The notes: a model not told the origin generated them from the letters alone. Counted from the stretch's first letter, positions 20,878 through 56,347 are shown. The stretch: DNA of 63,837 bases from a virus (IMGVR_UViG_3300032289_001441:1-63837), one strand, 5' to 3'. Numbers and translations are program-made.

Positions 20878-21777
20878 ATGAAAACCGCAACCCGTAAGGC
20901 TTCCCCCCGTGCAATCCAGATTATCCGCGAAAACGGTTATATCGTGCGGATAATCGATAAAAACTATGCTACCGTCGAAGGTGGTCGGCTGCCCCATAGG
21001 GTTGGCGTCAAGAGGCTGTTGGGGGATGGTGACGCAAACCCGAAAACCGCGAAAAATAAGGTTGCAACCCGTGGCCTATCCCTATTTCCCCACCGCGGGA
21101 TCGGGTTTGGCAACGTGTGCCAGTTTGCGAAAAACTGTGTTGCAACGTGTCTGGCACATCAGGGGCAGGGTAGCGTCCCGAGTGTCGCGGGCGCGCGTGT
21201 GGCGAAAACTGTGCTATATCACATCGCGAAGGATTGGTTTTTGAAGAAGCTTCACCGGGAATTGGATAGTTTTCGTCGCAGCCGGCCGGAAGACGTGACG
21301 GTAGGTGTGCGCTTGAATATGTTTTCGGATATTCCGTGGGAGGAGCATGGTGTGATCGATACGCACCCTCTTGTAAGTTTTTACGATTACTCGAAAGACC
21401 CAAGCAGATTCGGTCTTATCCGCCCAAATTATTGGGTAACATTCTCGCACGATGGATTGAACACGGAAGACAGCATCCGAGTTTTGCGCGCGGGTGGGAA
21501 TGTGTCGGTCGTGTGGCACACTACCGAACCCGATCTTATGGCAACCTATGGGAATTCGGCCGCATGCGGGAAAGCCGCACATCGTCAACTTCTCCCATCG
21601 TCTTGGAACGGATTTGAAGTCATCGACGGCGGGGAAACGGATTGGAGGTGGGAAGACCCGCGCGGGGTTGTGGTGGGGTTGCGGCTGTTGGCGAAAACGT
21701 ATGCCAGCCGCAATCGTGCGATACGGTCTGGATTCTCGCCGGCCGTCGATATCAAACTGCCGATACTGGGCCGATAG
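20878..21777 (+). CDS. GP88-like protein (Cys motif CxxAxxCxxxC)
   Basis: N.KT.K, VC.FA..C...CL, RLN..SDI.W, FYDY.K, Y.VTFS, DG..D.R.DP.G.VVGL motifs. Confidence 0.7.
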   Translation: MKTATRKASPRAIQIIRENGYIVRIIDKNYATVEGGRLPHRVGVKRLLGDGDANPKTAKNKVATRGLSLFPHRGIGFGNVCQFAKNCVATCLAHQGQGSVPSVAGARVAKTVLYHIAKDWFLKKLHRELDSFRRSRPEDVTVGVRLNMFSDIPWEEHGVIDTHPLVSFYDYSKDPSRFGLIRPNYWVTFSHDGLNTEDSIRVLRAGGNVSVVWHTTEPDLMATYGNSAACGKAAHRQLLPSSWNGFEVIDGGETDWRWEDPRGVVVGLRLLAKTYASRNRAIRSGFSPAVDIKLPILGR

Positions 21778-21789
21778 GCTACTGGCAAA

Positions 21790-21825
21790 CACCTCCGGCC
21801 GCGGGGCTGCCAGCGGCCGGAGGTG
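21790..21825 (+). terminator. GC hairpin after GP88-like gene
   Basis: cacctccggccgc...gcggccggaggtg inverted repeat; no U-tract. Confidence 0.4.
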
Positions 21826-22021
21826 ACCAGCACACACGCACACACACACGCTCGAACCTCAGGGGCTGCCAGCGGCCGGAGGTGACCAGCACACACGCAC
21901 ACACACACGCTCGAACCTCAGGGGCTGCCAGCGGCCGGAGGTGACCAGCACACCAGCACACCAGCACACACACACACACGCTCGAACCTCAGGGGCTGCC
22001 AGCGGCCGGAGGTGACCAGCA
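21803..22021. repeat. ~59-bp tandem repeat (3 full + 1 partial) with (CA)n tracts
   Basis: ggggctgccagcggccggaggtgaccagca starts at 21803, 21862, 21921 and 21992. Confidence 0.95.
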
Positions 22022-22024
22022 TAG

Positions 22025-22118
22025 CCCCGACCGTGGAAACGAGCACCAACCCCGACCGTGGAAACGATACGATATCCCCGACCGTGGAAACGAGCACCAA
22101 CCCCGACCGTGGAAACGA
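22025..22118 (+). repeat. Four copies of 18-mer CCCCGACCGTGGAAACGA
   Basis: Exact copies at 22025, 22050, 22076 and 22101 (25-26 bp period). Confidence 0.95.
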
Positions 22119-22124
22119 TAGACC

Positions 22125-22409
22125 ATGAAAATCGAAACTGACGAATGGCTCCCCGTGATCGATGCCGGCAAGCTTGCCGGGTTGGATAAAACAACCGCGC
22201 TGCGCCTCGCGCGATCACTTGGGATCGTGCATACGTTTTTCGGCGTGAACATCATGCGAAAAGCAGACGTTGCAAAACTCGAAACCAACCGCCGCCGGCC
22301 TGGAAATCCCAACTGGATCGAATCGTGGGACGGCGCAGCCGCCGATGGTTCGCGAGGCGGTGAGGCTGCAAAAAAGGCCCGTACAGCGAAACGAGCACCC
22401 CGACCGTAA
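22125..22409 (+). CDS. Small HTH (excisionase/MerR-like) protein, left of array
   Basis: L...DA.KLAGL...T..R pattern; similar to 35628-35918. Confidence 0.65.
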   Translation: MKIETDEWLPVIDAGKLAGLDKTTALRLARSLGIVHTFFGVNIMRKADVAKLETNRRRPGNPNWIESWDGAAADGSRGGEAAKKARTAKRAPRP

Positions 22410-22438
22410 GAAACTTTCCACCCCAAAAGATTTTAGGG

Positions 22439-22466
22439 TTGACACAACAAAAGACGATGCTAGGAT
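22439..22466 (+). promoter_or_regulatory. Sigma70 promoter at head of cassette array
   Basis: TTGACA-16-TAGGAT with extended -10 TG. Confidence 0.75.
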
Positions 22467-22529
22467 AACACACAACACGGGAGGCACGTTGCCCCCCGAT
22501 CATGGAAACCCCCAACGAGGAAACGAGAC

Positions 22530-22769
22530 ATGACGGCTAAAAGCGACTCGCTTGTGCTGGAGAAGATGCGGCGCGGAATGGTGCTCTCGCAAAACAGTCA
22601 GGGAAACTACTGGCTCTTCGACGGCGGCGAGGTTGCCTGCCGCGTTACCGTCGATGCGGCCGAGCGTCTGATCGTCGCCATGAAAATCGTTCGCGACTAC
22701 AAAAACAGCGGCGCGTTCGGCATCAACTGGATGCCGGCCACGCAGCCCGATAGCACCGGCACCAACTGA
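22530..22769 (+). CDS. Hypothetical protein (array)
   Basis: GAGGAAACGAGAC-ATG leader. Confidence 0.75.
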   Translation: MTAKSDSLVLEKMRRGMVLSQNSQGNYWLFDGGEVACRVTVDAAERLIVAMKIVRDYKNSGAFGINWMPATQPDSTGTN

Positions 22770-22820
22770 ACCCCGACCGTCGAAACGATTCCACCCACAA
22801 CCCCTAAGAGGAAACGAGAC

Positions 22821-23018
22821 ATGACCAAGCTGGAGCGCGAACTACTGAAAGAATGCGAGACGATTGCCGCGGCCGATGGGCTGCGACTTGCCGATGTTCT
22901 CCGCGACTGTCACCGATTCTGGTGCGGTGCTGGTCGCAGCCTCAAGCCGCGGGGCTGGGCTGCCCGTGCCGCGGCGGCGGCTCGACTCGTCTCTCGGTTC
23001 AATTCGATAACTGCCTGA
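22821..23018 (+). CDS. Hypothetical protein (array)
   Basis: GAGGAAACGAGAC-ATG leader. Confidence 0.7.
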   Translation: MTKLERELLKECETIAAADGLRLADVLRDCHRFWCGAGRSLKPRGWAARAAAAARLVSRFNSITA

Positions 23019-23071
23019 CCGCAAACACACCCGTCCCTGGAAACCCAAACCCCCACCGAGGAAACGATCCC

Positions 23072-23323
23072 ATGATCATCGAAAACATCGACGACACATA
23101 CCCCGCCCAGTTTCGCATGGCCGGCACGGGCGAGATCATCGTGCCCGAGAGCGACGGCGGCACGGCCACGCTCCTGCGACAAATCCGCTGCATTCTCGAC
23201 GGCCACGGCACCCTGGATTTCTGCCCGACCACGGGCGAGTTGATCATTCGCACGGGGCTCGACGTTCAGATGGGCGGCGAGTTGGTGCCGATGGGTGATG
23301 ACAGCGACAGCGACGATGATTAG
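23072..23323 (+). CDS. Acidic hypothetical protein (array)
   Basis: GAGGAAACGATCCC-ATG leader. Confidence 0.7.
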   Translation: MIIENIDDTYPAQFRMAGTGEIIVPESDGGTATLLRQIRCILDGHGTLDFCPTTGELIIRTGLDVQMGGELVPMGDDSDSDDD

Positions 23324-23404
23324 ACTACCGCGCGACACAACGGCCACCGGCACGTTGCCGGCGGCACCCCCGACCGAGAGAACCCCGACAGAGGAAACGA
23401 GACG

Positions 23405-23638
23405 ATGAAACACGACATCCGACCCGGCGACCGCGTGGCCTACTCTGCCAAATTCCTCCGCTCTATCGGCTGCCGGACCGGCCCGATGCCGTTCGCCCGC
23501 GGGCGGGTGATCGCGTTGCGGCATTACGCCGGCGCGACGTTGGCGACGGTGGCGTGGAACGATCCCGTGATGCCCGACAGCGTGAACGTCGCCAATGTGA
23601 TTGCCGTCGCTGATATCGGCCTGGAATGCGTTGAATAG
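23405..23638 (+). CDS. Small SH3/KOW-like hypothetical protein (array)
   Basis: PGDRV..RG.V...V.W pattern; hairpin leader. Confidence 0.7.
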   Translation: MKHDIRPGDRVAYSAKFLRSIGCRTGPMPFARGRVIALRHYAGATLATVAWNDPVMPDSVNVANVIAVADIGLECVE

Positions 23639-23724
23639 ACCCCTGCTCAAGACAAACCCCGCCGGCGCGTTGCCGGCGGGGCCGACCGTGGAAACGAGAG
23701 AACCCCCCAAGAGGAAACGATCCC

Positions 23725-24927
23725 ATGAACACTGCAACCTTGAACGCTATTTCTCACAGCGATCTGCCCGCCGCGATGGCAGCCGTCGCCCGGTTTGCCG
23801 CCGGCAAGAGGTGCCCGCGGCCGATCCTGCAAAACGTGATGCTCTCGACCGGCGTGGCCGGCACGATGGTCGCAGCCACCGATCTGGAAACGCTGTGTGT
23901 TGTCCACATGCCCGGTGGCAGCGGCGACGGCAAGACGCTCCTGCCCGCCAGCATGGCGAAGCAGATCGCGAAGGAGAAGTGCTGCACGGTCGAATGCGAC
24001 GATGCCGGCGAAGACTCGACCGTGTCTGCCTGCGGCGTGACCGCGGCGGCCGGGGATACGCTGGAGTTTCCGCATTGCTGGCCCCTCGACCCGGCGGCTC
24101 CCGCCGTCCGCATTCCGTTTGAGGTTGTCGATCAGATCGACGGCGCGTGCTCGCCGGCCACCGATACGGAATCGTCCCGATACGCTCTCGGCGGGGTGCT
24201 GCTCGAAACCTCCGGCGATGACAAGCTCTATGCAATCGGCACGGATGGTCGCCGCCTTCACGCTCTGGGAGCCGCTGCCACGGTCGATGCACCGCTGATG
24301 GCAGTTGTCAGGCCCGGTGCCGTCGCGGGCTTCCTGAAGGCAGTGCGGGCCGTTGCCGCGGAAGTCTACGGGTTGAAGGGCAAAGCCCTTGCCGGCCGCC
24401 TGGAAGGGGATGCCGTGGAAATCCGCGCCGCCGCTAACACGGTGGAGTTCAAGTGGTATTCCCGCGGCTATACCGTCACGGTGAAAAGCCTCCCGGTCGA
24501 AGGCCGGTTCCCGAGGTGGCGGGATGTTTTCCCCGCGGGGTGCTGCGATGCCCCGGCCATCCGCATGGATGCCGGCGAAGCGGCGAAGCAGTTGAAGCAG
24601 GCAAAGGCTGCGACAAACGAGCAATGCCGCGGGGTGTTGTTCGCAGCCGGCCGCATGACCGCGGGGACAGTCGATGCCGGCCAGTATTCCGCGTGGATCG
24701 CGGGCGGCATGGGCGGCATGGGCGAATGCCAGCCGGTCAAACTCGACCCCGTTTATGTGCTCGCCGGCATCGCAGCCATCGATGCCGTCAAGGCTCCCGA
24801 CCAGTATCTGATCCATGTCAGAGACGGTCAGTCTGCCTGCTACATGCGGGCAGCCGGCGGCCACGATGCAAACGAGAAGGGGCAGGCCGGCCTGACGGTT
24901 GTGATCATGCCCCTTGCCGCCGATTGA
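23725..24927 (+). CDS. DNA polymerase III beta sliding clamp-like protein
   Basis: DnaN-type motifs PIL.NV, ATDLE, SRYAL.GV, TDGRRL, EGRFP.W..V.P. Confidence 0.85.
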   Translation: MNTATLNAISHSDLPAAMAAVARFAAGKRCPRPILQNVMLSTGVAGTMVAATDLETLCVVHMPGGSGDGKTLLPASMAKQIAKEKCCTVECDDAGEDSTVSACGVTAAAGDTLEFPHCWPLDPAAPAVRIPFEVVDQIDGACSPATDTESSRYALGGVLLETSGDDKLYAIGTDGRRLHALGAAATVDAPLMAVVRPGAVAGFLKAVRAVAAEVYGLKGKALAGRLEGDAVEIRAAANTVEFKWYSRGYTVTVKSLPVEGRFPRWRDVFPAGCCDAPAIRMDAGEAAKQLKQAKAATNEQCRGVLFAAGRMTAGTVDAGQYSAWIAGGMGGMGECQPVKLDPVYVLAGIAAIDAVKAPDQYLIHVRDGQSACYMRAAGGHDANEKGQAGLTVVIMPLAAD

Positions 24928-25021
24928 TTGCCCCCGAGTAAGACAAACCCCGCCGGCACGTTGCCGGCGGGGTGGCCCCCGTGGATGGAAACCTAAACCC
25001 CTAGAACGAGGAAACGAGACG

Positions 25022-25315
25022 ATGACTAAGACAACCAACAAACCCGCCCCCCGCAAGTTCACGCCGGCCACCGGCATCGGCTTCGACCTCACGGTCGAGG
25101 ACAGCGGCTACGGTCTGAAAAACGAGCCGGCAGTTGTGCTCTGCCTGCACACGATCTACGGCACCCGCGTGTATGGGCCGTTCGTGAACATTGCCGCCGC
25201 CCAGGCGTGGATCGGCAGCGATGCAGACGAGACGCTGGTCGTGTGCTACGGGTCGAGCCGCGACTGGTCGCTTCACGCCACAACGATGGAGGTGGACGGA
25301 CACTACCGCGACTGA
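25022..25315 (+). CDS. Hypothetical protein (array)
   Basis: Hairpin plus GAGGAAACGAGACG-ATG leader. Confidence 0.75.
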   Translation: MTKTTNKPAPRKFTPATGIGFDLTVEDSGYGLKNEPAVVLCLHTIYGTRVYGPFVNIAAAQAWIGSDADETLVVCYGSSRDWSLHATTMEVDGHYRD

Positions 25316-25398
25316 CCGGCGGCGGCGGGGGGTGGCCGGCGCGTTGCCGGCCACCCCGAGCGAGAGAACCTAAACCCCTGGAATGAGGAAACGAGACG

Positions 25399-25698
25399 AT
25401 GCCTGCAACACACCGAAAGAGCCGCCGCGATTATCCAGACGGCATTCTGGCGATCTATGACAACGGTGGCAGAACCGTAGACCGCTACTGCGTTGTGTAC
25501 GCTCCGTTCGCACTGGACGGGCGAACCTACTACCCAACTCTTCACATGAACGCCACGCCGACGCACCCCGCCGGCTACGGCATCCACGGCGAGTACGAGC
25601 GACGGCCGCGGCGGCTCCCAGGCGACCGCGTGATCTCGCTCGACGCGCTCCCCGAGGAGTGCCGGCGATGCGTCGAGGATGATCTGCGAGCCGACTGA
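25399..25698 (+). CDS. Hypothetical phage protein (YDNGG.T.DRY motif)
   Basis: Hairpin leader; motif seen in small phage early proteins. Confidence 0.75.
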   Translation: MPATHRKSRRDYPDGILAIYDNGGRTVDRYCVVYAPFALDGRTYYPTLHMNATPTHPAGYGIHGEYERRPRRLPGDRVISLDALPEECRRCVEDDLRAD

Positions 25699-25801
25699 CG
25701 GCCGCCCCTGGAACCGCCGGTGCCCGTGACCGGCGGCGAGGGGGATGCCGGCATCGTGCCTGCCCCGACCGAGAGAACCCGAGAACAAAGGAACCCCGAC
25801 T

Positions 25802-26221
25802 ATGGCAACGAAGAAGGCAGCGACAGAGAAGAAGGAATTCCGCGTCAGTCGCATCTGGACGGTGGAATACCGCTCCTATGCATTCGTCAAGGCGTCGAAC
25901 GCCGAGGAGGCCGCGAAGCTGGCCCTGGATGACGATGACTACAGCGATCAGGAGTCGCTCGATGGCAGCGACGGCCCGACCGAGATCGACGAGATCGTGG
26001 AGATCATGCCGGATGGCGGCGAGATCGAGCACGACATTCCGGTGGCAGACGAGGCCGAATACGCGGACGTGGCCTGGAGAGTCGAGGATATCAAGGAGCG
26101 CATGCCCGACTGGAGCAACAAGCGGTGCGCGAAGTGGCTTGAAATGAATGCGGACGCGATTCAAGTCGCGATGATCGATGCCGGCGGCGACGAGATCGAA
26201 CGAAGCCTGCCCCGCGAGTGA
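25802..26221 (+). CDS. Acidic hypothetical protein (array)
   Basis: AAGGA RBS, degenerate leader; V.ASNAEEA..LA motif. Confidence 0.75.
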   Translation: MATKKAATEKKEFRVSRIWTVEYRSYAFVKASNAEEAAKLALDDDDYSDQESLDGSDGPTEIDEIVEIMPDGGEIEHDIPVADEAEYADVAWRVEDIKERMPDWSNKRCAKWLEMNADAIQVAMIDAGGDEIERSLPRE

Positions 26222-26296
26222 TGACAAACCCCGGCCGGCGGCACGTTGCCCCGGCCGGCGAAACGAGACGAACCCTGGAACGAGAGGAACTGAATC

Positions 26297-26620
26297 ATGG
26301 CCGAGGCCCTGAAACTGATCTGCACGTTGAAGACGCACATAGTCGGCCCCGAGGGCGACTTTATCCCAGCCGGCACCCCCGTGCAGGTGATCGGATGGGA
26401 TGACGATGGCAAGAGCATCGAAGTACGCACGACGGCGCACGTTTATGTGGATGGCTGGGCTGGGATGTATGACGCGATTGAGGCTGGCGAGTCAACCGGA
26501 TTGATCGGCAGCGGCCTGTATGTGCCGGTGCCACCGGAGGCTCTCGTCTACAGCGAAGACACTCACATGACGTTGCTGAACGAACGCAAGAAGGCACGGC
26601 GCGAAGCCTGGGCCGACTGA
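26297..26620 (+). CDS. Hypothetical protein (array)
   Basis: Flanked by identical 38-bp hairpin elements. Confidence 0.75.
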   Translation: MAEALKLICTLKTHIVGPEGDFIPAGTPVQVIGWDDDGKSIEVRTTAHVYVDGWAGMYDAIEAGESTGLIGSGLYVPVPPEALVYSEDTHMTLLNERKKARREAWAD

Positions 26621-26689
26621 CTGACAGCCCCGGCCGGCGGCACGTTGCCCCGGCCGGCGAAACGATACCCCCGCAAGAGGAAACGACAG

Positions 26690-26935
26690 ATGAACCCGAC
26701 CATGAAACTGACCCCGACCGCCGGCCTCGCCACGCTCATGTGGTTCGCGCCGGCCCCGGCACCCAACGATATCGCCGCGATCATGCTCTCTCGCATTGTC
26801 GAGGCCCATGAGGCCGCGATGGAGGCGAACGATCTGCTAGCCGCGGGCGTGATCAGCACCGACCGCTACGAGCGGGCTGCGAATGATCGTGATGATGCTA
26901 TCGATGCCGCTGCGGAATTTCTGGGAGCACGATAG
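26690..26935 (+). CDS. Hypothetical protein (array)
   Basis: Hairpin plus GAGGAAACGA leader. Confidence 0.7.
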   Translation: MNPTMKLTPTAGLATLMWFAPAPAPNDIAAIMLSRIVEAHEAAMEANDLLAAGVISTDRYERAANDRDDAIDAAAEFLGAR

Positions 26936-27015
26936 CCCCTGGTGAAGACAATCGGGGCCGGCGCGTTGCCGGCCCCGTGGATGGAAACGAGAACCCCGTA
27001 GATAGGAACCAGACA

Positions 27016-27303
27016 ATGACAACCAAGAAACGGATAACGAAAGCGGAGCGAGCTAACCGCGACGGCATGATGCGGAAAATCGAGTGGTCGCGGATTCTCG
27101 TCCTGCGATGGTTGATTGAGGCTGGCTGGAGCAATCGCCGGCTGGCGAATACCTGGGCGACACTGGAGAGCGAGACAGCCCGCCTCGTCATCTCGCATTC
27201 GGTGCCGGATCACAATTGGTGCTGCGAAGTCGAGGTGGCTGGGATCGTGAAGGAGACGATGCTGGCGATCACGTTCACGCCTTGGGATGAGGTGGCCCGA
27301 TGA
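27016..27303 (+). CDS. Hypothetical protein (array)
   Basis: Hairpin leader, AGGA RBS. Confidence 0.7.
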   Translation: MTTKKRITKAERANRDGMMRKIEWSRILVLRWLIEAGWSNRRLANTWATLESETARLVISHSVPDHNWCCEVEVAGIVKETMLAITFTPWDEVAR

Positions 27304-27494
27304 AACCCATGCTGCCCTGGTGGAGTTGCTCCGCGCTGATCCTTGACGGTGAAGACGAGATCGATCTGGACGTTGACGTTCAGGCGGCAGATGCCGAGGC
27401 GGCCGAATACGATGCCCGAGAGCAGTGGATAGATCATGGGCACAATCCCGAGAAGGTGCGGGTGCGGATTATTGAGTGGAGGGTCGAGGAATGA
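27300..27494 (+). CDS. Acidic hypothetical protein
   Basis: ATGA coupling. Confidence 0.6.
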   Translation: MKPMLPWWSCSALILDGEDEIDLDVDVQAADAEAAEYDAREQWIDHGHNPEKVRVRIIEWRVEE

Positions 27495-27745
27495 GAAACG
27501 CGAACGGCCACGATCTCTATGTAAGCGATGCCACCTACGCGATCTCGCCACTGGTGCCGCGGGTGCTCCTGCGGTGCGAGCGGTGCGGGTGCCTGGGGGT
27601 CGGCATCATCGAAACGCAGGGGGACCGCGACTATGCGGCGACGATGGATCGCGAGTTCGATACGGGCGAGTGGTGGCACTTCGATGCGCTGCGGATCATC
27701 GGGTCGGCAGCCGCGGAGTGTACGGGCGCACACCACAATAAGTAG
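27491..27745 (+). CDS. Hypothetical protein with CxxC
   Basis: ATGA coupling, GAGG RBS. Confidence 0.6.
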   Translation: MRNANGHDLYVSDATYAISPLVPRVLLRCERCGCLGVGIIETQGDRDYAATMDREFDTGEWWHFDALRIIGSAAAECTGAHHNK

Positions 27746-27781
27746 ACTACCGCGACAGACAATGGTCTGCATTTTGTAGGG

Positions 27782-27810
27782 TTGACACACAGTCGGACAT
27801 AGCCGATAAT
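27782..27810 (+). promoter_or_regulatory. Sigma70 promoter
   Basis: TTGACA-17-GATAAT; upstream context ttt..agggttgacac shared with the 22439 promoter. Confidence 0.75.
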
Positions 27811-27873
27811 GATTGCACATGCGGAGGCACTGTGCCGATGCTGGACTCGAGTCCAACGATGGAGGATAGAGCG

Positions 27874-28056
27874 ATGAAGAAGAACAACACGCAGGAATAT
27901 CGTGGCTACAAAATCGTGCGGCTGCCTCGACGCTGGGTTGTGCTGAACAAATGCGACAGTCAAGTGGCTGCCTTTAGCACACTCTCAGCCGCCAAGGCCC
28001 AAATCGATCGGTTTGTTGACCCTACTGATGCCAGCGACTACGGATGCCCGATCTGA
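27874..28056 (+). CDS. Hypothetical protein (array)
   Basis: GGAGG RBS; EYRGY.I..F.TL.AAKA.ID pattern. Confidence 0.7.
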   Translation: MKKNNTQEYRGYKIVRLPRRWVVLNKCDSQVAAFSTLSAAKAQIDRFVDPTDASDYGCPI

Positions 28057-28121
28057 CCGGCCATCGCCCGCTGGCAACTGGGCCAGCGGGCAACACGAAA
28101 ACGAGACACAAGGGCACACAG

Positions 28122-28331
28122 ATGAGCAAGGTTCTCAGCGACTTGGCGAAGCGGCACCCCGAGAAGATCGACAGCATCGATCGCGACGATACCGGGTGGA
28201 TCATCAACCTGACCGATGCCTGGGTCGAGGACAGCGACCCCGCCCAGGCGAGCCATATGATTTTCGAGGACACGGTCGCCCAGTGCGTTGCCGCCTTCCG
28301 TTCCATCCGCAAAGCAAGGAAAGGCGAGTGA
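28122..28331 (+). CDS. Hypothetical protein (array)
   Basis: Variant hairpin plus AAACGAGAC leader. Confidence 0.65.
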   Translation: MSKVLSDLAKRHPEKIDSIDRDDTGWIINLTDAWVEDSDPAQASHMIFEDTVAQCVAAFRSIRKARKGE

Positions 28332-28334
28332 CGC

Positions 28335-28649
28335 ATGACCGGCTACCAACTCTCCCCCAGGATCACGCTCCACCCCGGCGACCGCTTCCGCGTGGCCGGC
28401 GGCCCGTACTACCGGCTGGCATCCGGCGAGAAGGTGCCACTCGCCGCCCGTGGCGTGTTCACGCTGCTGGCGGTCGATGCCGGCCGGCGTGGCAGGGTGC
28501 AGCTACTGGCCTACGGTGCCGGAGGCTTCGCGGTGATCCACGTTGCCGGCCGGCGGCGGTCGCGGGTTCCTGGGCTCGTCTGCCGGCCTTACCGGGTACG
28601 GAGGGTGGGTGCTCAGAAAAATCCGCGAGGCCGGAGAAAATCCGCTTGA
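28335..28649 (+). CDS. Basic hypothetical protein
   Basis: ORF following 28331. Confidence 0.6.
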   Translation: MTGYQLSPRITLHPGDRFRVAGGPYYRLASGEKVPLAARGVFTLLAVDAGRRGRVQLLAYGAGGFAVIHVAGRRRSRVPGLVCRPYRVRRVGAQKNPRGRRKSA

Positions 28650-28675
28650 CTACTGGTGGAGAGTTTGTTTAGGAT
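28646..28675 (+). promoter_or_regulatory. Sigma70 promoter
   Basis: TTGACT-18-TAGGAT. Confidence 0.6.
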
Positions 28676-28757
28676 TGACCCGCGACGAGACGATACTAGA
28701 AGGGGCACGTTGCCCCGGCCGTGGAAACGAGAAACCCCCGACAGAGGAAACGCGACG

Positions 28758-29084
28758 ATGAAGACCGTGAAATACACCATGTCCGACCATCTTTTCGAGC
28801 TGCACGACAACCTAGTGATCAACTACCCAGGCCGGCTGGCACCCGTCGCCACAGTGACCGCGATGGCAGCCGTGGCGAACGTGGCTCGCCGGTTCCGGCT
28901 GCGGTCGGTGGCCCGCTACATGGCGGCCTGGGCCTACGACATTGCCGATGTGCCGATGAAGGCGGATGCGTTCGATGCCCATGAGCGGCTCATGCCTTGG
29001 GCATGGCACAAGAGCCGGCCTGCCCTGCGTTGGTGGGTCTATGCCGAGAAGGCCCGCGCGGTGCTGGCGACGATTCAAGGCTGA
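28758..29084 (+). CDS. Hypothetical protein (array)
   Basis: Hairpin plus GAGGAAACGCGACG-ATG leader. Confidence 0.7.
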   Translation: MKTVKYTMSDHLFELHDNLVINYPGRLAPVATVTAMAAVANVARRFRLRSVARYMAAWAYDIADVPMKADAFDAHERLMPWAWHKSRPALRWWVYAEKARAVLATIQG

Positions 29085-29146
29085 TCCCCGCCGGCACGTT
29101 GCCGGCGGGCGGGACACGAGAAACCCCCGAACGAGGATACGAGACG

Positions 29147-29506
29147 ATGAGCCGAATGAAAAATGCGATCATTGCCTGTTGGGATGCGGACGCGATCCCC
29201 GTCCCAGGTGGCACCGTGAAGAAGTGGCGGGCGGCGGGCCATGCGGCCCCGACAATCCGAGTGCCCGTGACTGGCTACAACGGGCAGACGATCATGCTCC
29301 GCGCCATGCGGCACCGTGATGCCAGTGCGATGGCTATGCGGCTGGAGGGGTCGAGCGACGGCCGCCGGCTATGTCGCGAACTGACTGCCCTGCGGAAGTA
29401 TCGGTACATGGCTTTGCCATGCCGATGCGGTGCCTGCGGTGTTCGCGGGCAGCGGCACTTCTTTGTGAATACCGGGGCGGAGACGCTCTGCGTGAATTGT
29501 GGGTGA
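29147..29506 (+). CDS. Hypothetical protein with C-terminal Zn-ribbon (CxxC..CxxC)
   Basis: Flanked by identical 35-bp hairpin elements. Confidence 0.7.
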   Translation: MSRMKNAIIACWDADAIPVPGGTVKKWRAAGHAAPTIRVPVTGYNGQTIMLRAMRHRDASAMAMRLEGSSDGRRLCRELTALRKYRYMALPCRCGACGVRGQRHFFVNTGAETLCVNCG

Positions 29507-29590
29507 TCCCCGCCGGCACGTTGCCGGCGGGCGGGACAGATACGAAACTACACTACCCCCGGCCGGGGGAAACCTAAGAGGAGAGCGACG

Positions 29591-30535
29591 ATGAAGACGG
29601 CAACAAAAAAGGTGACCTACACGGCGACATTTCAGGAGAGCATCGCGGGCGCGGTGCTGGTGAACGTGGCTCGCAATCGGCGGCGGCTCGACCTGGGCAA
29701 TCTGCCGTCTGGCGTGATTGACTATCTCAGCCTGAAGAAGTCGGGCAGCGGGTGCTGGGTTTTCGATATCGATGGGCATCAGAAGTTTGATGATCTCGTC
29801 GCCTGCGCCGAGGTGACCGAAAAGAAGCAGGGCAAGAAGAAAGCACCCCGTCGAGCTACCGCGACATTTACCGTCGAGTCTTACAACGTCGAGCAGATTG
29901 AGCCGGCCGAGCAACTGCCGAATACATGGGGCGACGGTGCGAAGTGGGGCGTGAGCGACTGGTATGAGGAGTTAGAGACTGCAATCGCCGCTGCCCTCGT
30001 CCGCGGCAAGAGCTATGCCTGGACGACCGGATGGTATTCATCCAAGAAGGAAATCATGTCGGCTCGCATCTCGCAGCGTGGCGGCGAGATCACCGTCGAG
30101 GTGAGCGTCAGCGATGACTTCGATACCGAGGGTCGCGGCGAGCGGACGATCAAGTTCACCAAGCGGCTCGACCGCATCCGCGAGGCACTTGATGCCGCGG
30201 CAGATGCCGCCGAGAGCGACCGCCACGAAAACCAGTGCTATCACGGGTTCAGCGTAGGCCAAAAAGGTGCCTGGGAATTCACTCTAATCCTGCCCAATGG
30301 CGACGGATATCTGATGGACTCGCCGCCGGGAGACAACTATCACCGCTGGGGCTGGCAGGAAGTCGAGGACGGTGAGGATCGGCCGGCAGAGATTTCTGCC
30401 GATGACGCTGCGAGCCTCCTGGCGGCCGCGCACAGTTTCATCGACGGCGAAGTGTCAAGCCGGAAGCAGTGGGCAGTGGTCTGCGGCGGCGGCGAGTGGA
30501 CGATCCGGGCATGGGAGGACGAATCCGATGCCTGA
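29591..30535 (+). CDS. Hypothetical protein (314 aa, array)
   Basis: Hairpin leader, GAGGAG RBS. Confidence 0.8.
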   Translation: MKTATKKVTYTATFQESIAGAVLVNVARNRRRLDLGNLPSGVIDYLSLKKSGSGCWVFDIDGHQKFDDLVACAEVTEKKQGKKKAPRRATATFTVESYNVEQIEPAEQLPNTWGDGAKWGVSDWYEELETAIAAALVRGKSYAWTTGWYSSKKEIMSARISQRGGEITVEVSVSDDFDTEGRGERTIKFTKRLDRIREALDAAADAAESDRHENQCYHGFSVGQKGAWEFTLILPNGDGYLMDSPPGDNYHRWGWQEVEDGEDRPAEISADDAASLLAAAHSFIDGEVSSRKQWAVVCGGGEWTIRAWEDESDA

Positions 30536-30818
30536 CTTCAACATCGAATCGCACTGGTGCTGCTCGACCGCTCGCCACTGGCAGGCAATCATCGACGGGC
30601 ACCGAGTCGCCTGGGAACCCCTGCCGCCGTCCGCGAATGTCGGCTACGGGTTTGTGTGCGACTGCAAGGGGTACAAGTTCAGGAAAACGTGCCGGCACGT
30701 TAAGGCGGCAGAGTCGATGCGATGCGGATGGCAGGCATTCGTCCACGGCGGCGAGCAGGTCGATGGTCGATGCCCGCGATGCGGCGGCGAGGTGACGGCA
30801 GAGAGCTATGCGGTCTGA
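30528..30818 (+). CDS. SWIM zinc-finger protein
   Basis: CxC...CxH (CDCKGYKFRKTCRHV) plus C-terminal CPRCG. Confidence 0.75.
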   Translation: MPDFNIESHWCCSTARHWQAIIDGHRVAWEPLPPSANVGYGFVCDCKGYKFRKTCRHVKAAESMRCGWQAFVHGGEQVDGRCPRCGGEVTAESYAV

Positions 30819-30882
30819 TTGGGATGGCAGCCAGCGCGGCTGCCCCCTGGAACGTGGAAACCTAGAGACGAGGAGAACGACG

Positions 30883-31038
30883 ATGGCAAAGAAGAAGGCA
30901 GCGAAGAAGGCGACAACGAGCGGCAAAGCGGCAGACGTTCTGCCGGGGATGCCGGGTAAGTTTGTGGTGATGAGCATGAGTGGTAAGCAGAATGAGGCAA
31001 TCGCCGCAGCGATGCGGAAGATGCTTGGCGGCGGTTGA
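30883..31038 (+). CDS. Small basic protein
   Basis: GAGGAGAACGACG-ATG leader. Confidence 0.6.
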   Translation: MAKKKAAKKATTSGKAADVLPGMPGKFVVMSMSGKQNEAIAAAMRKMLGGG

Positions 31039-31139
31039 GCCGACCCCCCGCTCCCCCCGCACGGCGAAACGCTGGCGGGGATTGCGGCGGGCCAGCGTGG
31101 CCCCGAGCGTGGAAACCATAGAAGACTAGGAGAGCGACG

Positions 31140-31409
31140 ATGACAGCGACGGCGAAAATCACACTGCGGATCGACAGCAACATCCAAGGCGATGCCCGCG
31201 TGGAGCTATGGGAGGTGTGCTGCGGGTCATACCCCGTGATCGAGATGAGCGACGACAGCGACATCGACTTCGATGCCTGGGAGGTCAAGCAGATCGACGG
31301 CACCAGCGGCGAGCGGTATCGCGACGAGCAGGAGACGCTCTGCCACTGCATCTACCGCATGGGCTATCTGATCGACGGATACGGCAGCGACGAGTGGATC
31401 ATTCAGTAA
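31140..31409 (+). CDS. Acidic hypothetical protein (array)
   Basis: Box plus AGGAG leader. Confidence 0.7.
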   Translation: MTATAKITLRIDSNIQGDARVELWEVCCGSYPVIEMSDDSDIDFDAWEVKQIDGTSGERYRDEQETLCHCIYRMGYLIDGYGSDEWIIQ

Positions 31410-31462
31410 CAGAACCAATTCCCCCAGCCGGCCCCGGCCGGCGAAACCTAAGGAGCATGACG

Positions 31463-31708
31463 ATGACGACAACAATCAAGCTGACGAACCGCTGGCAGAC
31501 GATCTGCACGGTCGGCTACACGGGCGGCGTGAGCCGCGACGAAAACCGCTCCGCTCACGGTGGCGTTTGCCACTGCCAAGCGAGGCGGGCGAAGGACGGC
31601 ACGATCATGGGCAGAAAAGTGAACAGCAACGGCAGGCACGAGGAGGTCGGCGAGCCGTTCGCGATTGACGAAGATCGCGTGCGGCACTGGGCAGCGATTG
31701 GCGGCTGA
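31463..31708 (+). CDS. Hypothetical protein (array)
   Basis: ccggccggcgaaac plus AGGAG leader. Confidence 0.65.
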   Translation: MTTTIKLTNRWQTICTVGYTGGVSRDENRSAHGGVCHCQARRAKDGTIMGRKVNSNGRHEEVGEPFAIDEDRVRHWAAIGG

Positions 31709-31768
31709 CCCCCGCCCCGTGGAAACCTTTACCCGATTACCCCATGCCGCCCCGAGCGGCGAAGCGAG

Positions 31769-32341
31769 ATGACCATGCCATACTCGACTCATGTCTCCGA
31801 ACTCCGCACAGCGCGGCTGCGGCCATACGTCGCAGCCGCCTGGGCGGAGGCCGGAAGCTATTCGACGGATGACCTCGCGGCCATCGTCGGCCGTGCCGGT
31901 CGCCGGCAGAGCCTGCGAGCCGAGGCCGCCTGGAAGTTTGCGGACGAGGCGGCGACTGAGGCCGAGGAGCGGGATGCCGCCGACGCCGAGAAAGCCGAAC
32001 GAGAGGCAGCGGAGCTGGCTGAATATCTCGCGAGGAGGGCGGCAGTCGATGCCGCCCGCCGGGGGGCCGAGGCCGCCTGCGCCGCCGCAGGCTGGACGAT
32101 GACTTGGAGGCATGGCAGTGCCGGTGGCTCGATGTATTTCTGGATCGTTGGCCCTGGCGACGACGACGAGCGGATGAGCCTGCGGATCAGCGACCACATA
32201 GCCCCCGGCGGGGCAGGGTGGAGCGACGAACGGCAGGAGCGTCACGCCGAGCCCGATCTGAACATTGTGATTCGCCGCGGAGCGGGCGGCGAGTACACGC
32301 ACGATTTGACCCCGCTCGTGGAAACGATTGGCAGCAACTAA
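31769..32341 (+). CDS. Hypothetical protein with S.Y...LRISDH motif
   Basis: 190 aa ORF with box upstream. Confidence 0.7.
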   Translation: MTMPYSTHVSELRTARLRPYVAAAWAEAGSYSTDDLAAIVGRAGRRQSLRAEAAWKFADEAATEAEERDAADAEKAEREAAELAEYLARRAAVDAARRGAEAACAAAGWTMTWRHGSAGGSMYFWIVGPGDDDERMSLRISDHIAPGGAGWSDERQERHAEPDLNIVIRRGAGGEYTHDLTPLVETIGSN

Positions 32342-32381
32342 CCCAGCCGGCCCCGGCCGGCGAAACATCAGGAGCACGACG

Positions 32382-32576
32382 ATGAGAAACTTGAACATCA
32401 CTATCAGCGCGGAGGAGGAGGAGGCATTGCGGCGGTCGATTGCCGGCCTCGTCGCGGACGAGCGGCAACGGTTCTTCGGCCGGAAGCGGCAGAGCAAGAT
32501 GGAGCAGGCAGCCGAGCGTCTCTACGAGAAGATTTTTGAGCGCAGCCCGTGCGGATCTTCGCAGCCAGTCAAATAA
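32382..32576 (+). CDS. Hypothetical protein (array)
   Basis: Leader nearly identical to that at 31423. Confidence 0.65.
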   Translation: MRNLNITISAEEEEALRRSIAGLVADERQRFFGRKRQSKMEQAAERLYEKIFERSPCGSSQPVK

Positions 32577-32603
32577 CCCCCGACCAACGAAACGAACACA
32601 ACC

Positions 32604-32960
32604 ATGATGGGAATAAACATCAACGACAAGACGCAGCCCTTCACCGCTCAGATTCTGAGCGGCGAGAAGACGGTCGAGACGCGGCGAACCAACTCGCTGC
32701 ACCCCTATGTGGGGCAGCGGGTAGGCATCGTCCGCACCGGCCGTGGCAAGGCGACAATGGTCGGCTACGCGACCATTGGCGAGCCGATCCGCTACGAGCA
32801 CCAGAAGCAGTTTGCGGCCGACTACGCTCGCCACCGGGTGGCGGCGGGCTCCCCGCATGACTGCGGCACCGATGGCAAGTTTGGCTACATCCTGATCGAT
32901 GTTGAGGCGACTACCCCCAGGCCGGTGACGAGCCGCGGGATCGTGGCGAGAAGAATCTGA
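32604..32960 (+). CDS. ASCH/PUA domain protein
   Basis: QPF...ILSG.KTVETR signature. Confidence 0.8.
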   Translation: MMGININDKTQPFTAQILSGEKTVETRRTNSLHPYVGQRVGIVRTGRGKATMVGYATIGEPIRYEHQKQFAADYARHRVAAGSPHDCGTDGKFGYILIDVEATTPRPVTSRGIVARRI

Positions 32961-33044
32961 CAGAGCACAAAAAACTTTTTGTGCGACCACAAAAAACATT
33001 TTCCCAGCGACAGCAAAAACACGGCGAAAACAAGTTTTCTGAGA

Positions 33045-33061
33045 TTGGCACGCTGTGTGCA
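33045..33061 (+). promoter_or_regulatory. Candidate sigma54 (-24/-12) promoter
   Basis: TTGGCACG-CTGT-GTGCA, GG-N10-GC spacing, preceded by A-tracts. Confidence 0.5.
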
Positions 33062-33125
33062 ATAGCAACACCCGACCGAGCAAACGATAACCCTAACCCT
33101 AACCCCTAGTACGAGGAAACGAGAC

Positions 33126-33746
33126 ATGACCACGAAGACAAAGAAGCACGGCGTGATCGTCACGATTGGCGGCAAGCACAACACGAAGACGGTCTGGAAC
33201 CGCGGCCACCGGATGATCACCTACCGCAGGCAGCCGAGGCGTATCCGGTTCAGGTCGAAGATGGTGAACGACAAGAATCAGCACCTCTGCGGAGGCTGGG
33301 GATTCGCCGGCCTGGAGGACAACAACCTGTGGATCGAGCGGCAGCTTATCGCCGGCCGGAAGCCGTTCGGTGTGATGTTCTTCTGGGGGCCGGAACTCGA
33401 GCACGGCGAGCACATCGCCTGCGCCGAGCGTCTGCGAGCCGCCGGCCTCGTTGTCCGCGAGGGGGCTGGGTTCGTTAAGGGCACGAGGATCGTGGAAGCC
33501 TGCCACGACATTCGCGTGGCCGACATCGGCGACATGGGCGAGTTGCTCGCCGATTACGTCAAGGCACTCATCCCAGAGTACGAGGACGATCTTCGCGACG
33601 AGTTCAAGCGATACGGTGGCCGGCGGCTACGCTCCTTCATGGGCAAGCGTTGGGATACCGAGCATAACCCGCTGTGGCTGACCGGCCTCATCCTGGGCTA
33701 CCCCGTCGAAAACACGATCAGTTGCTATCACGAAGCGGTTTCGTGA
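33126..33746 (+). CDS. Hypothetical protein (GLILGYP motif)
   Basis: GAGGAAACGAGAC-ATG leader. Confidence 0.75.
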   Translation: MTTKTKKHGVIVTIGGKHNTKTVWNRGHRMITYRRQPRRIRFRSKMVNDKNQHLCGGWGFAGLEDNNLWIERQLIAGRKPFGVMFFWGPELEHGEHIACAERLRAAGLVVREGAGFVKGTRIVEACHDIRVADIGDMGELLADYVKALIPEYEDDLRDEFKRYGGRRLRSFMGKRWDTEHNPLWLTGLILGYPVENTISCYHEAVS

Positions 33747-33816
33747 TCCACCCGCGCTCGAGGGCCGCCGCCACCCCCGAGCGTGATAACCCCGAGCGGC
33801 GAAAGCAGAGGAGACG

Positions 33817-34197
33817 ATGACAAAAGAAGGATTCAGGATCGACAAGAAGAAGAGAATGTCGAAGAAGGCAGTCTGTGCCTACTTCGGCGAGCGCGGGATG
33901 CCGGTATCCCCCGCCGAGGTGGCCTTCCACGCGGTCGGCACGTTCACGAGCAGGAAGTGGGATCACGAGCACGGCGGTCGCTCGACCGATGAGCTGGAGA
34001 CGATCCCCGCCCTGGCCGTGATCATCAAGGAGCGTCCGAAAGGCATCTGCGACTGGGGCGATACGGACGATGGCCGGATGGATGTCTATGCTCTGAACGA
34101 CATCTACGGCGAATGCCAGGATGACGTTCCGGCACCGAAGTACGCGATCGCTGCGGCGAAGAGGGCGGCCCGACCGACGAAACGAGGTGCGACATGA
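33817..34197 (+). CDS. Hypothetical protein (array)
   Basis: Box plus GAGGAG RBS. Confidence 0.7.
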   Translation: MTKEGFRIDKKKRMSKKAVCAYFGERGMPVSPAEVAFHAVGTFTSRKWDHEHGGRSTDELETIPALAVIIKERPKGICDWGDTDDGRMDVYALNDIYGECQDDVPAPKYAIAAAKRAARPTKRGAT

Positions 34198-34475
34198 AAA
34201 AAGACGACCGCGTGATGCGGGACTATGTGATGGGTGGCAACTACGTTGGCACAGTCGCGACGATCTGCTCCCTCCGAGAAAACGGGTGGAGCGTCGAAGA
34301 GATTGCAGCCCAGATGCCAATCATCGGCAAGACCTGTGGCAACGAGGCAATACGAGCGGCCGGCTTGAACGGCGGGCCTCGAGTTAGTTCGCTCTACGAG
34401 CACATGAACCTGTTCGGAGAGCAATTGTGCGAGAGACTGCGTGAACTGCGGACGATGGACATTTCCACCAACTAA
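34194..34475 (+). CDS. Hypothetical protein
   Basis: ATGA coupling, GAGG RBS. Confidence 0.65.
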   Translation: MKKDDRVMRDYVMGGNYVGTVATICSLRENGWSVEEIAAQMPIIGKTCGNEAIRAAGLNGGPRVSSLYEHMNLFGEQLCERLRELRTMDISTN

Positions 34476-34488
34476 GGAGACCCCGACC

Positions 34489-34665
34489 GTGAGAAACCGA
34501 ATCACGCCCTACGAGGCCGGCTGGCTGACATTCTTGGTCAGCTCCGGCATCGCCAGCGAGGCCGACTGCCGCGCCGCGATGAATCGCGTGGCCCAGGAAG
34601 CCCTCGACGAGATCAATCGCCTGCGGGCGAAAAAGAGGGCTGGAAAACGTCGCAAGGATCGATAG
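34489..34665 (+). CDS. Small hypothetical protein
   Basis: AAGGAG RBS, GTG start. Confidence 0.5.
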   Translation: MRNRITPYEAGWLTFLVSSGIASEADCRAAMNRVAQEALDEINRLRAKKRAGKRRKDR

Positions 34666-34727
34666 GCTACTAGCCGATAGTAAATAGGCTACCAAGGAAG
34701 ATTAACCACGAAGAAAGGAGGCTCAGA

Positions 34728-35039: not shown

Positions 35040-35238
35040 ACCCCCGAGCGTGGAAATGGGTCATGGATGACCTGATCCGCACGCTCGTGCTCGTCAGACT
35101 CGGGCAATTGCTCGGGTCTGAGAGCACGGCGGCGCGGGCCGTCCACGATCTCGTCGAGGCTGTTTTTTCGATTGTCAGATGATGGGATGGACGCATAGAA
35201 TGACAACCCTACCCGAGCATGGAAACGAGAGGATCACG

Positions 35239-56306: not shown

Positions 56307-56347
56307 CTCGCATGGAAGTGGTACTCCTTTTGAAGGAGAGACACCCC

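Follow-up and report, generated by a model that had tools for sequence, protein, structure and literature searches.

Hairpin-bearing intergenic cassettes as probable regulatory spacers and recombination joints in the early-gene block of an uncultivated tailed phage

A block of small early genes separated by cassettes

The window, by which we mean the whole stretch of DNA analysed (63,837 nucleotides), is a complete tailed-phage genome of 63.8 kb from an uncultivated, high-GC phage group known from metagenomes, one run being labelled freshwater. Among the best reference matches listed for its terminase, identities were 42.5–44.5%, all to phages of Firmicutes-type hosts. A T4-type myovirus as carrier was rejected on the 63.8-kb genome size and on terminase identities of at most 44.5% among those matches. 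About 35 small genes with intergenic cassettes between them form a block on the + strand, in which 18 of 36 genes had no homologue in the first six relatives and nine of ten proteins scanned had no PHROG match. The block and the promoter and repeat elements associated with it are as follows.

22125–35918, + strand: hyperplastic early-gene block g1–g35 (ORF lists and Shine-Dalgarno-guided gene calls)
22023–22123, + strand: four tandem 25-nt units with a GTGGAAAC box in each, 5' of the first early gene (repeat families D4 and D12)
22439–22466, + strand: sigma70-like promoter with a family hairpin directly 3' (10/12 consensus positions)
27782–27810, + strand: sigma70-like promoter, then a variant hairpin (11/12 consensus positions)
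28646–28675, + strand: sigma70-like promoter cassette between g17 and g18, kept in relatives (consensus scan, relatives' alignment)

The cassettes consist, in order, of stop codon, GC-rich hairpin, (GT)GGAAAC box, Shine-Dalgarno leader and ATG, and a few of them include a sigma70-like promoter. Folding of the 27 spacers longer than 20 nt yielded hairpins, one family of which is defined by the apex GGCRCGTTGCC, with 11 occurrences, all on the + strand, compared with 0.13 expected by chance. The GGAAACGA motif (18 copies vs 2.46 expected) and the GTGGAAAC motif (10 copies vs 1.61 expected) are likewise confined to the + strand. A consensus scan found five promoter-like sites on the + strand across the 27 block spacers; on both strands there were seven, compared with 2.8 ± 1.4 in shuffles.

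Covariation was assessed on 31 hairpins (28 distinct) from seven sources. Both sides had changed in 7 of 11 stem pairs, paired cells amounted to 89.9% compared with 71.7% in shuffles, and doubly changed cells numbered 49 compared with 18.5, a value reached in none of 500 shuffles. The stem of the family hairpins is therefore under selection. Their apex is constant and the stem base variable: GGCRCGTTGCC is present in nearly all family hairpins found, although the shared proteins of the carrier phages are only 30–60% identical, and this constant apex is a concrete candidate protein-binding site. In a second hairpin family, hpD is identical over 21 nt at seven or more loci.

Intrinsic terminators combine a GC-rich stem with a run of T on the transcribed strand. 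The cassettes resemble them, and phage morons, in having a GC-rich hairpin directly 3' of the stop codon and in giving a few genes their own promoter, but differ in the absence of a T-run 3' of the hairpin on the coding strand. No T-tract was flagged 3' of the family hairpins on the + strand, and three hairpins were terminator-like on the − strand only; these results do not support a classical terminator role. At the RNA level, the most likely role of the spacers is to punctuate the early transcripts and to drive translation, while attenuation, RNA processing or stabilisation are possible tasks of the hairpin.

Near-identical hairpin pairs bracket genes

Four pairs of closely similar hairpins bracket genes in the block. 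Our analysis reproduced the positions and lengths given for them in a preliminary description of this DNA (33 nt with one mismatch; 38, 35 and 25 nt identical), as well as the genes inside them: the clamp, recognised by its PHROG match, and ORFs 26297–26620, 29147–29506 and 31463–31708 with 31769–32341.

23649–23681, + strand: pair A copy 1, hairpin 5' of the clamp gene (33 nt; the single difference is the R of the loop)
23725–24927, + strand: g6, sliding-clamp-like, 400 aa (phrog_947 'DNA polymerase processivity factor', E 4.5e-17)
24940–24972, + strand: pair A copy 2, hairpin 3' of the clamp gene (33 nt; same single difference)
26229–26266, + strand: pair B copy 1, hpB (38 nt identical to copy 2)
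26297–26620, + strand: g10, 107 aa, no family, inside pair B (ORF call, PHROG scan)
26628–26665, + strand: pair B copy 2, hpB (38 nt identical to copy 1)
28758–29084, + strand: g18, 108 aa, absent from G001 and L125, present in L131 (comparison with relatives)
29082–29116, + strand: pair C copy 1, hpC (35 nt identical to copy 2, including the preceding TGA stop codon)
29147–29506, + strand: g19, 119 aa, CxxC-rich C-terminus, inside pair C, absent from L131 (comparison with relatives)
29504–29538, + strand: pair C copy 2, hpC (35 nt identical to copy 1)
31423–31447, + strand: pair D copy 1, hpD, second hairpin family (25 nt identical, within a 51-nt stretch at 88%)
31463–32341, + strand: pair D segment, comprising g24 (31463–31708), a spacer with hairpin hpF and g25 (31769–32341) (ORF calls, folding)
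32342–32366, + strand: pair D copy 2, hpD (25 nt identical, within the 51-nt stretch at 88%)
22483–28714, + strand: five more GGCRCGTTGCC-family hairpins, apices at 22483–22493, 23349–23359, 25338–25348, 26960–26970 and 28704–28714 (motif search, folding)

The Pfam clamp match of g6 is weak and below cut-off. No match to g6 was found in the complete relative G001 or in G003, its counterparts in G002, G004 and L071 are only 30–37% identical, and in the relative L124 a 93%-identical clamp lies between the same pair A hairpins, which there share a run of 39 nt. The clamp is an accessory gene in this phage group. Tandem gene duplication does not account for the pairs, because the window's genes include no paralogues.

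Similarity is related to adjacency but bimodal

Spacers were compared with one another using 26 of the 27 longer than 20 nt, the 353-nt repeat-bearing spacer at 21775–22127 being omitted. Adjacent spacers reached a mean local score of 36.2, compared with 25.1 ± 1.9 in permuted order (0 of 20 000 permutations reached 36.2), and for 12 of the 26 a neighbour was the best partner. The flanks alone of the 11 window hairpins gave a weaker signal (adjacent identity 0.55 vs 0.42, p = 0.024), which fell short of significance in G002 (p = 0.086) and in smaller sets. Across the 16 of 26 sources with at least two hairpins, exact shared runs of ≥ 25 nt occurred in 7 of 53 adjacent pairs and in 0 of 112 non-adjacent pairs (Fisher p = 2.7e-4), counts that are not independent because the sources are related; a rank test over all hairpin pairs was not significant (p = 0.20).

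The earlier observation that distant copies mostly diverge holds, but most adjacent copies diverge too: whether copies are adjacent or not, the median shared run is 13 nt. Similarity is bimodal, neighbours being either near-identical or unrelated, and there is no gradual decay by distance. Because near-identity is sporadic, blanket homogenisation of neighbours is disfavoured as a general cause.

Single-element, relocated and hybrid arrangements in relatives

The cassette motifs offer a practical means of marking out mobile gene modules and of retrieving relatives, and served the latter purpose here. About 25 related phage contigs (six viral, one from a MAG and 18 metagenomic) have cassettes in common and different genes between them; the six viral contigs share both cassettes and some genes with the window. 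Empty-site alleles, with one element and the bracketed gene absent, had been predicted from the window, and the relatives' alignments contain them for pairs B, C and D. In each case, the single element combines the 5' flank of window copy 1 with the 3' flank of copy 2.

For pair C, L131 reads g18–hpC–leader without g19, and L125 and G001 read g17–promoter cassette–g19 without g18. For pair D, g23 of L131 is followed by one hpD, whose 5' flank resembles that of copy 1 and 3' flank that of copy 2, and g24 and g25 are absent. For pair B, a gene of L124 whose 3' end resembles that of g9 is followed by one hpB and then by the leader of window copy 2, with no g10 at this site; a 97%-identical g10 lies ∼500 nt upstream of the single hpB in another context, and has thus been relocated. 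The window is itself the empty site for unrelated genes held between two hpC copies in G001 and G002. Pairs of the same hairpin type surround different genes in the window, G001, G002, G006, L124 and L126, and indels and replacements among the relatives are bounded by cassettes (alignments A1 and A3–A6).

The single-element alleles of pairs B, C and D, together with the complete relative that lacks the clamp, mark the bracketed genes as indel modules bounded by the elements. This part of the preliminary interpretation stands; homogenisation of neighbours as a general cause is disfavoured. A population devoid of empty sites, with element similarity unrelated to adjacency, had been named as the outcome that would speak against that interpretation, and neither was encountered.

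The g18|g19 spacer is a hybrid in which hpC is joined to the promoter-cassette leader that precedes g19 in relatives (L125), and the two cassettes of which it is made each occur on their own in relatives. Such a composition suggests that cassettes recombined unequally; in this one reconstructible case, an unequal crossover of non-allelic cassettes from two parental arrangements fits at least as well as circle integration. Breakpoints vary, falling after the hairpin, at the Shine-Dalgarno sequence, at ORF ends or inside the 3' coding end. Any phage mosaic would show gene-boundary breakpoints, since recombinants with disrupted genes are selected against.

In three other runs, contigs from relatives link the window's cassettes in further combinations. 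In these, g8 (X4 25370→25774) and g28 (X4 32950→33752) are skipped, with 2–13 letters between the sides, and the same may hold for g26 (X4 32384→32602); all joints were taken at 85% likeness, and some may be mis-placed on paralogous cassettes. The run contigs, built at k = 31, cannot show junctions across the 35–38-nt repeats. The window's two hpC copies have in common a variant of the 3' flank that was not observed in L131, and some local conversion may therefore also act.

Spacers as probable regulatory elements and recombination joints

We consider it probable, at roughly 0.7, that the hairpin spacers serve both as regulatory spacers and as recombination joints through which related phages gain and lose early genes and pass them among themselves, in a manner similar to that described for T4-type phages. 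This reading draws on the directly observed cassette anatomy, stem selection, single-element alleles, hybrid spacer and g10 relocation. The spacers recur every 300–1200 nt in one orientation and are common to relatives, and so provide portable homology. Non-allelic spacers would recombine within one genome or between co-infecting relatives, and such events would insert, delete, stack or relocate gene modules. A near-identical bracketing pair would then be the direct repeat left behind, both copies descending from one position-specific hairpin, and recombination between the two would excise the gene cleanly. The enzymes, the direction of each event (gain or loss) and any circular intermediate are conjectural parts of this scheme; a search of the window for RecT, ERF or resolvase genes found none, and the recombination machinery may be the host's own.

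Alternative explanations

Local gene conversion or concerted evolution could instead homogenise neighbouring hairpins without any gain or loss of the intervening genes, leaving the pairs uninformative on mobility. Consistent with this, the hairpin 5' of the window's clamp resembles the one 3' of it (0.86) more than any G002 hairpin, its positional counterpart L115:1128 included; the copy downstream of the clamp is equally close to its own G002 counterpart. The window's hpC copies also have common flank variants not seen in relatives. However, for hpC, L131 and L125 suggest two different parental genomes as the origins of the two copies, and conversion sits poorly with the bimodal similarity, in which most adjacent pairs are no closer than distant ones, with the hybrid-flank single-element alleles of pairs B, C and D, and with the presence of the same hairpin type around unrelated genes in different genomes. 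We therefore regard it as an unlikely explanation of the pairs. That they have no recombination history at all, being functional look-alikes held by selection on one optimal regulatory hairpin or assembly artefacts at repeats, seems highly improbable. Hairpin conservation across genomes is strong, as the many identical hpD loci illustrate, but identity within the pairs is not confined to the stem and includes unpaired flanks as well as the stop codon, whereas same-family hairpins in the same genome vary freely in the stem via compensatory changes. In the source run, Logan contigs do end within pairs B and C and thus give no independent confirmation of order across them; the paired architecture nevertheless recurs in independently assembled contigs of other samples.

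Integron cassettes are promoterless small ORFs in the same orientation, each with an imperfect folding palindrome, which move as one-site circles. In the early block, too, small ORFs are arrayed in one orientation and each is accompanied by a hairpin with a covarying stem, and the folded hairpin could be the site of an Xer-like tyrosine recombinase that moves genes as one-hairpin circles. The window does encode a tyrosine recombinase at 56294–57202 (35 bits, above the Pfam cut-off), which is also present in three of four relatives searched, and the position of g10 differs between the window and L124. Yet this recombinase lies 20 kb from the array, with no integron-type integrase beside it, and its NCBIfam matches are all to Xer-type models and score far under the cut-offs (41 vs 330 bits); no specific integron-integrase model was listed for it at E ≤ 0.01, and the ordinary reading of its role is lysogeny or dimer resolution. 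In attC sites, conserved inverse core sites stand at the stem base and the centre is variable, the reverse of the conserved apex and variable base seen here, and breakpoints at several cassette positions contrast with a single fixed crossover point. An integron-like site-specific system is thus very unlikely. We give equally little credence to its extended form, in which a dedicated phage protein, perhaps the Xer-like tyrosine recombinase at work on folded single-stranded DNA, would recognise the apex GGCRCGTTGCC, and the early region would be an active integron-like platform for capture, excision and reordering instead of a passive substrate of homologous recombination.

Relation to known phage cassettes

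Cluster K mycobacteriophages carry start-associated sequences (SAS, and extended SAS or ESAS), a 13-bp asymmetric repeat 5'-GGGATAGGAGCCC at translation starts, which overlaps the ribosome-binding site directly 5' of start codons, is suspected of a role in translation initiation and is preceded by an imperfect inverted repeat at about half of the sites (PMC3203893). The window's cassettes are similar in placing a one-orientation repeat at the ribosome-binding site before start codons, together with an inverted repeat, but the start-associated repeat here is GAGGAAACGAGAC-like, not the mycobacteriophage 5'-GGGATAGGAGCCC. The portions of that report available to us describe neither a role of SAS/ESAS in gene gain or loss nor near-identical neighbour pairs (PMC3203893).

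The closest known system is the promoter-early stem-loop (PeSL) cassettes of T4-type myoviruses (PMC2839356, PMC4122927), of which the window's cassettes are a new variant in an unrelated phage lineage. As far as the cited accounts extend, both are short composite elements at intergenic positions among the small, mostly ORFan genes of a hyperplastic region, both contain a stem-loop and end 3' in a Shine-Dalgarno sequence and start codon, and in both, cassettes delimit the indels and replacements that distinguish related phages, and genes are bracketed by two cassettes. The conserved core of PeSL is a strong sigma70 promoter in each cassette, with a variable stem-loop (PMC2839356), whereas most of the window's cassettes lack a promoter and their core is formed by the hairpin apex and the GGAAAC box. 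The carriers also differ, the window being a 64-kb genome that is not T4-type. In RB49, the cassette-bracketed genes yield mini-circles (PMC2839356).

In a limited literature search, reports of accessory-gene shuffling via repeated regulatory cassettes mainly concerned T4-type myoviruses. Finding the same logic in an unrelated phage group with a different, mostly promoterless cassette of constant-apex hairpin and GGAAAC box suggests that cassette-mediated modular exchange is a convergent, general route of early-gene turnover in phages, whose early genes often serve host takeover and counter-defence. Here, the same sites can be seen in natural alleles as empty, filled, stacked or relocated.

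Early block and cassette anatomy

The genome (63,837 bp, rated 100% complete, ∼61% GC) is arranged as two minus-strand arms flanking a block of small plus-strand genes, here named g1 to g35 in order. Megablast of the 22–34 kb region against reference phages gave no match.

Left arm, − strand: large terminase, portal and prohead protease
22.1–35.9 kb, + strand: early block between the two arms, ∼35 small genes
Right arm, − strand: PhoH, UvrD-like helicase, Prim-Pol, HNH protein, SNF2 helicase and tail-fibre-like proteins

Cassettes between the early genes run in a set order: stop codon, GC-rich hairpin, (GT)GGAAAC box, and a leader ending in a GAGGA-type Shine–Dalgarno sequence and ATG. The apex motif GGCRCGTTGCC occurs in 11 copies, all on the plus strand, against 0.13 expected, and the box occurs as 10 GTGGAAAC and 18 GGAAACGA, likewise all on the plus strand. 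Other hairpin families, hpD, hpE, hpF and hpG, fill the spacers at 30.8–33.8 kb. The block also holds 7 promoter-like sites vs 2.8 ± 1.4 in shuffles; a hairpin lies directly 3′ of the following:

22439–22466: promoter-like site
27782–27810: promoter-like site
28646–28675: promoter-like site

A plus-strand T-run is absent from all hairpins, and three hairpins are terminator-like on the minus strand only. At 24947–24973, 26953–26977 and 22478–22498 (− strand), an AAGACAA leader before the hairpin supplies the opposite strand with a T-rich tail, so that those hairpins score as antisense rather than coding-strand intrinsic terminators. A search of all Rfam families over 21.5–36.5 kb (E ≤ 1) returned no match.

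Near-identical hairpin pairs

The preliminary description reported four near-identical pairs of elements bracketing genes, and re-reading the sequence confirmed all of them; hpB, hpC and hpD denote the hairpin types of pairs B, C and D.

Pair A, 23649–23681 and 24940–24972: 33 nt with a single difference, in the loop; brackets clamp-like g6
Pair B, 26229–26266 and 26628–26665: 38 nt identical; brackets g10
Pair C, 29082–29116 and 29504–29538: 35 nt identical, stop codon included; brackets g19
Pair D, 31423–31447 and 32342–32366: 25 nt identical, embedded in 51 nt of 88% identity; brackets g24 and g25

PHROG and Pfam scans of the bracketed and neighbouring genes found no family except for the clamp (g6, phrog_947, E = 4.5e-17). 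Foreign composition of the bracketed genes was not seen, their GC of 0.61–0.68 falling inside the block range of 0.54–0.70. Tandem gene duplication as the source of the pairs was rejected because the window has no paralogues.

Likeness between neighbours extends beyond these pairs. Of the 27 spacers exceeding 20 nt, 26 were compared (the 353-nt repeat-bearing first spacer being left out); adjacent spacers had a mean score of 36.2 vs 25.1 ± 1.9 in permuted order, a value reached in 0 of 20 000 permutations, and the best-matching partner was the neighbour for 12 of the 26. Hairpin flanks alone gave a weaker signal than whole spacers (adjacent identity 0.55 vs 0.42, p = 0.024). In the 16 sources (of 26) that have two or more hairpins, exact runs of at least 25 nt around the apex were shared by 7 of 53 adjacent pairs and by none of the 112 non-adjacent ones (Fisher p = 2.7e-4; since the sources are related, the counts are not independent). 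The median shared run was 13 nt in both classes, with no significant difference in a rank test (p = 0.20). Likeness among hairpin pairs is bimodal, a pattern more in keeping with discrete events than with neighbours being steadily homogenised, one of the two origins initially proposed; the near-identical neighbours stand, and homogenisation is disfavoured as their general cause.

Runs of same-type hairpins can exceed pairs, since two related phage loci, L125 (6872–8737) and L128 (6098–7054), each carry three hpD hairpins ∼440–1380 nt apart. In a further related locus, L124, a near-identical hpB pair (6028–6103 and 6362–6441) surrounds an unrelated 87-aa gene; the second copy has gained one G in its 5′ arm and the pairing C in its 3′ arm, a compensatory insertion.

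Selection on the hairpin stem

We aligned 31 hairpins (28 distinct) from the window and six relatives, anchored on the apex. Among 11 stem pairs, seven change on both sides, three are invariant and one varies on one side. Stem cells were paired in 89.9% of cases vs 71.7% in shuffles, doubly changed cells numbered 49 vs 18.5 (0 of 500 shuffles reach 49), and slid registers gave 32–68% pairing. These figures show the hairpin stem to be under selection. The constancy of the apex is partly by construction, the hairpins having been picked by its 9-nt core; a one-mismatch apex search found a few variants. In L123, a reverse-strand locus on relative contig G006, the hairpins of two spacers (3208–3294 and 4105–4179 of the reversed locus) have an inverted apex, their coding strand reading GGCAACGTGCC, the reverse complement of the usual motif. 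Recombination between the two arms of the stem may flip the loop; alternatively, the apex may be recognised in double-stranded DNA and not as an RNA loop.

Relatives and gene content

Scanning viral contigs for the apex plus box gave 105 stretches, and six of those loci, with at least two copies of the 11-mer, have DNA and proteins in common with the block. A terminase search added one further phage contig, inside a metagenome-assembled genome (MAG), and a search with protein g17 added 18 metagenome contigs; the clamp protein, compared with viral contigs by exact peptide words (too strict a criterion), gave no relative. Homologues of g0–g35 were found in the first six relatives for 18 of the 36 genes and none for the other 18, of which g8, g10, g11, g18, g23 and g25 are present in metagenome contigs. 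Hairpin types follow one another collinearly in the window and in relatives G001 and G002, and the intervening genes differ.

Close terminase relatives (L118–L122, 61–90% identical) lie in MAGs that are labelled as four unrelated bacterial lineages: Chakrabartia, Solirubrobacteraceae, Planctomycetaceae and Microbacteriaceae. Host assignment from these labels was dropped because they disagree; the phage contigs were probably mis-binned.

Single-element alleles

Empty-site alleles, predicted in the preliminary description, were found in relatives for pairs B, C and D as a single element with the bracketed gene absent, but no clean empty site was found for pair A; the initial interpretation is in part supported. 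For pair C, locus L131 lacks g19: its order is g17, a promoter cassette, g18 (87–88% identical), a single hpC and then the downstream leader. L125 and the complete genome G001 lack g18 and have g17, a promoter cassette and g19 (93–94%). For pair D, g23 (88–89%) in L131 is followed by a single hpD whose 5′ flank matches window copy 1 and whose 3′ flank matches window copy 2; g24, hpF and g25 are absent. For pair B, L124 carries a gene with a g9-like 3′ end, one hpB and then the leader of window copy 2. No g10 lies there; a 97%-identical copy is found ∼500 nt upstream, set among other cassettes.

For pair A, the clamp family was not found in G001 or in relative G003, in L124 a 93%-identical clamp is bracketed by the same pair, and the clamps of G002, G004 and L071 are only 30–37% identical. 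The converse also occurs: at the corresponding place G001 and G002 have two hpC copies with unrelated genes between them, for which the window is the empty allele.

Origin of the pairs

The spacer between g18 and g19 in the window is a hybrid in which hpC is joined to the leader found in front of g19 in L125, there as part of a promoter cassette; the switch point is the box just 3′ of the hairpin. The window order is therefore as expected from unequal crossover between L131-like and L125-like genomes. In such an event a g18–hpC arrangement would have recombined with promoter cassette–g19–hpC, and g18 and g19 would be alternative occupants of one slot, each with its own copy of the slot's hairpin on its 3′ side. 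The reverse route would be equally possible, with the L131 and L125 arrangements derived from that of the window by deletion between repeats, and integration of a circle with one hybrid cassette, the other origin initially proposed, would give the same product as crossover. Breakpoints elsewhere take other positions: g10 is bounded by breaks exactly at its ends, in G002 the break falls within the 3′ end of a g19-like gene, and a contig from sequencing run X4 has its break at a CGAGAGAACC repeat. A fixed-site recombinase would fit such varied positions less well than exchange driven by homology or microhomology.

An integron-like reading of the cassettes appears highly improbable, as they lack three features that define such systems. 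The closest match is to the PeSL cassettes of T4-type phages, which are composites of promoter, stem-loop and Shine–Dalgarno sequence in hyperplastic regions, mediate RB49/phi1 indels and yield mini-circles (PMC2839356; PMC4122927). The window cassettes seem to work alike, but strictly speaking they fall outside the PeSL class: most are without a promoter, the part conserved at their core is the apex of the hairpin, and the phage does not belong to the T4 type. There is also an anatomical likeness to the SAS/ESAS repeats of Cluster K mycobacteriophages, which are reported to have no known function (PMC3203893).

Contigs from sequencing runs

Logan contigs of the likely source run match the window exactly and end inside pairs B and C; their k of 31 is too short to reveal deletion or circle junctions across these repeats. 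Their depth was 22.2 for segment 26237–26657 and 26.9 for segment 29087–29533 vs 30.6–36.3 for neighbours, a single figure per contig that is unable to rank genes; the lower depth could reflect a sub-population without g10 or g19, and we treat it as a lead rather than evidence. In relatives' contigs from three other runs of two studies, window cassettes are joined in other combinations, some with 1–21 letters between the sides; the joints were accepted at 85% likeness, and some of them may be misplaced onto paralogous cassettes.

Other features of the genome

56294–57202, + strand: Xer-like tyrosine recombinase, SAM-like N-terminal domain and catalytic domain
2186–7345, − strand: 1719-aa ORF in the structural arm, without significant Pfam family
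21803–22123: tandem repeats just 5′ of the first early gene

The Xer-like recombinase is the sole plus-strand gene of a minus-strand region and is kept in three of four relatives searched. It suggests a temperate or plasmid-like lifestyle, and any tie to the cassettes is putative. No RecT, ERF or resolvase families and no tRNA genes were found in the window. The 1719-aa ORF may encode a tape-measure or large tail protein. In the repeat region, four tandem 59-nt repeats, two of them identical and each with an arm of an 11-bp GC stem at its start, abut four tandem 25-nt units that carry the GTGGAAAC box. An 89-nt source-run contig from this repeat has a depth of 125 vs ∼36 for neighbours, and the array may be an origin or operator array.
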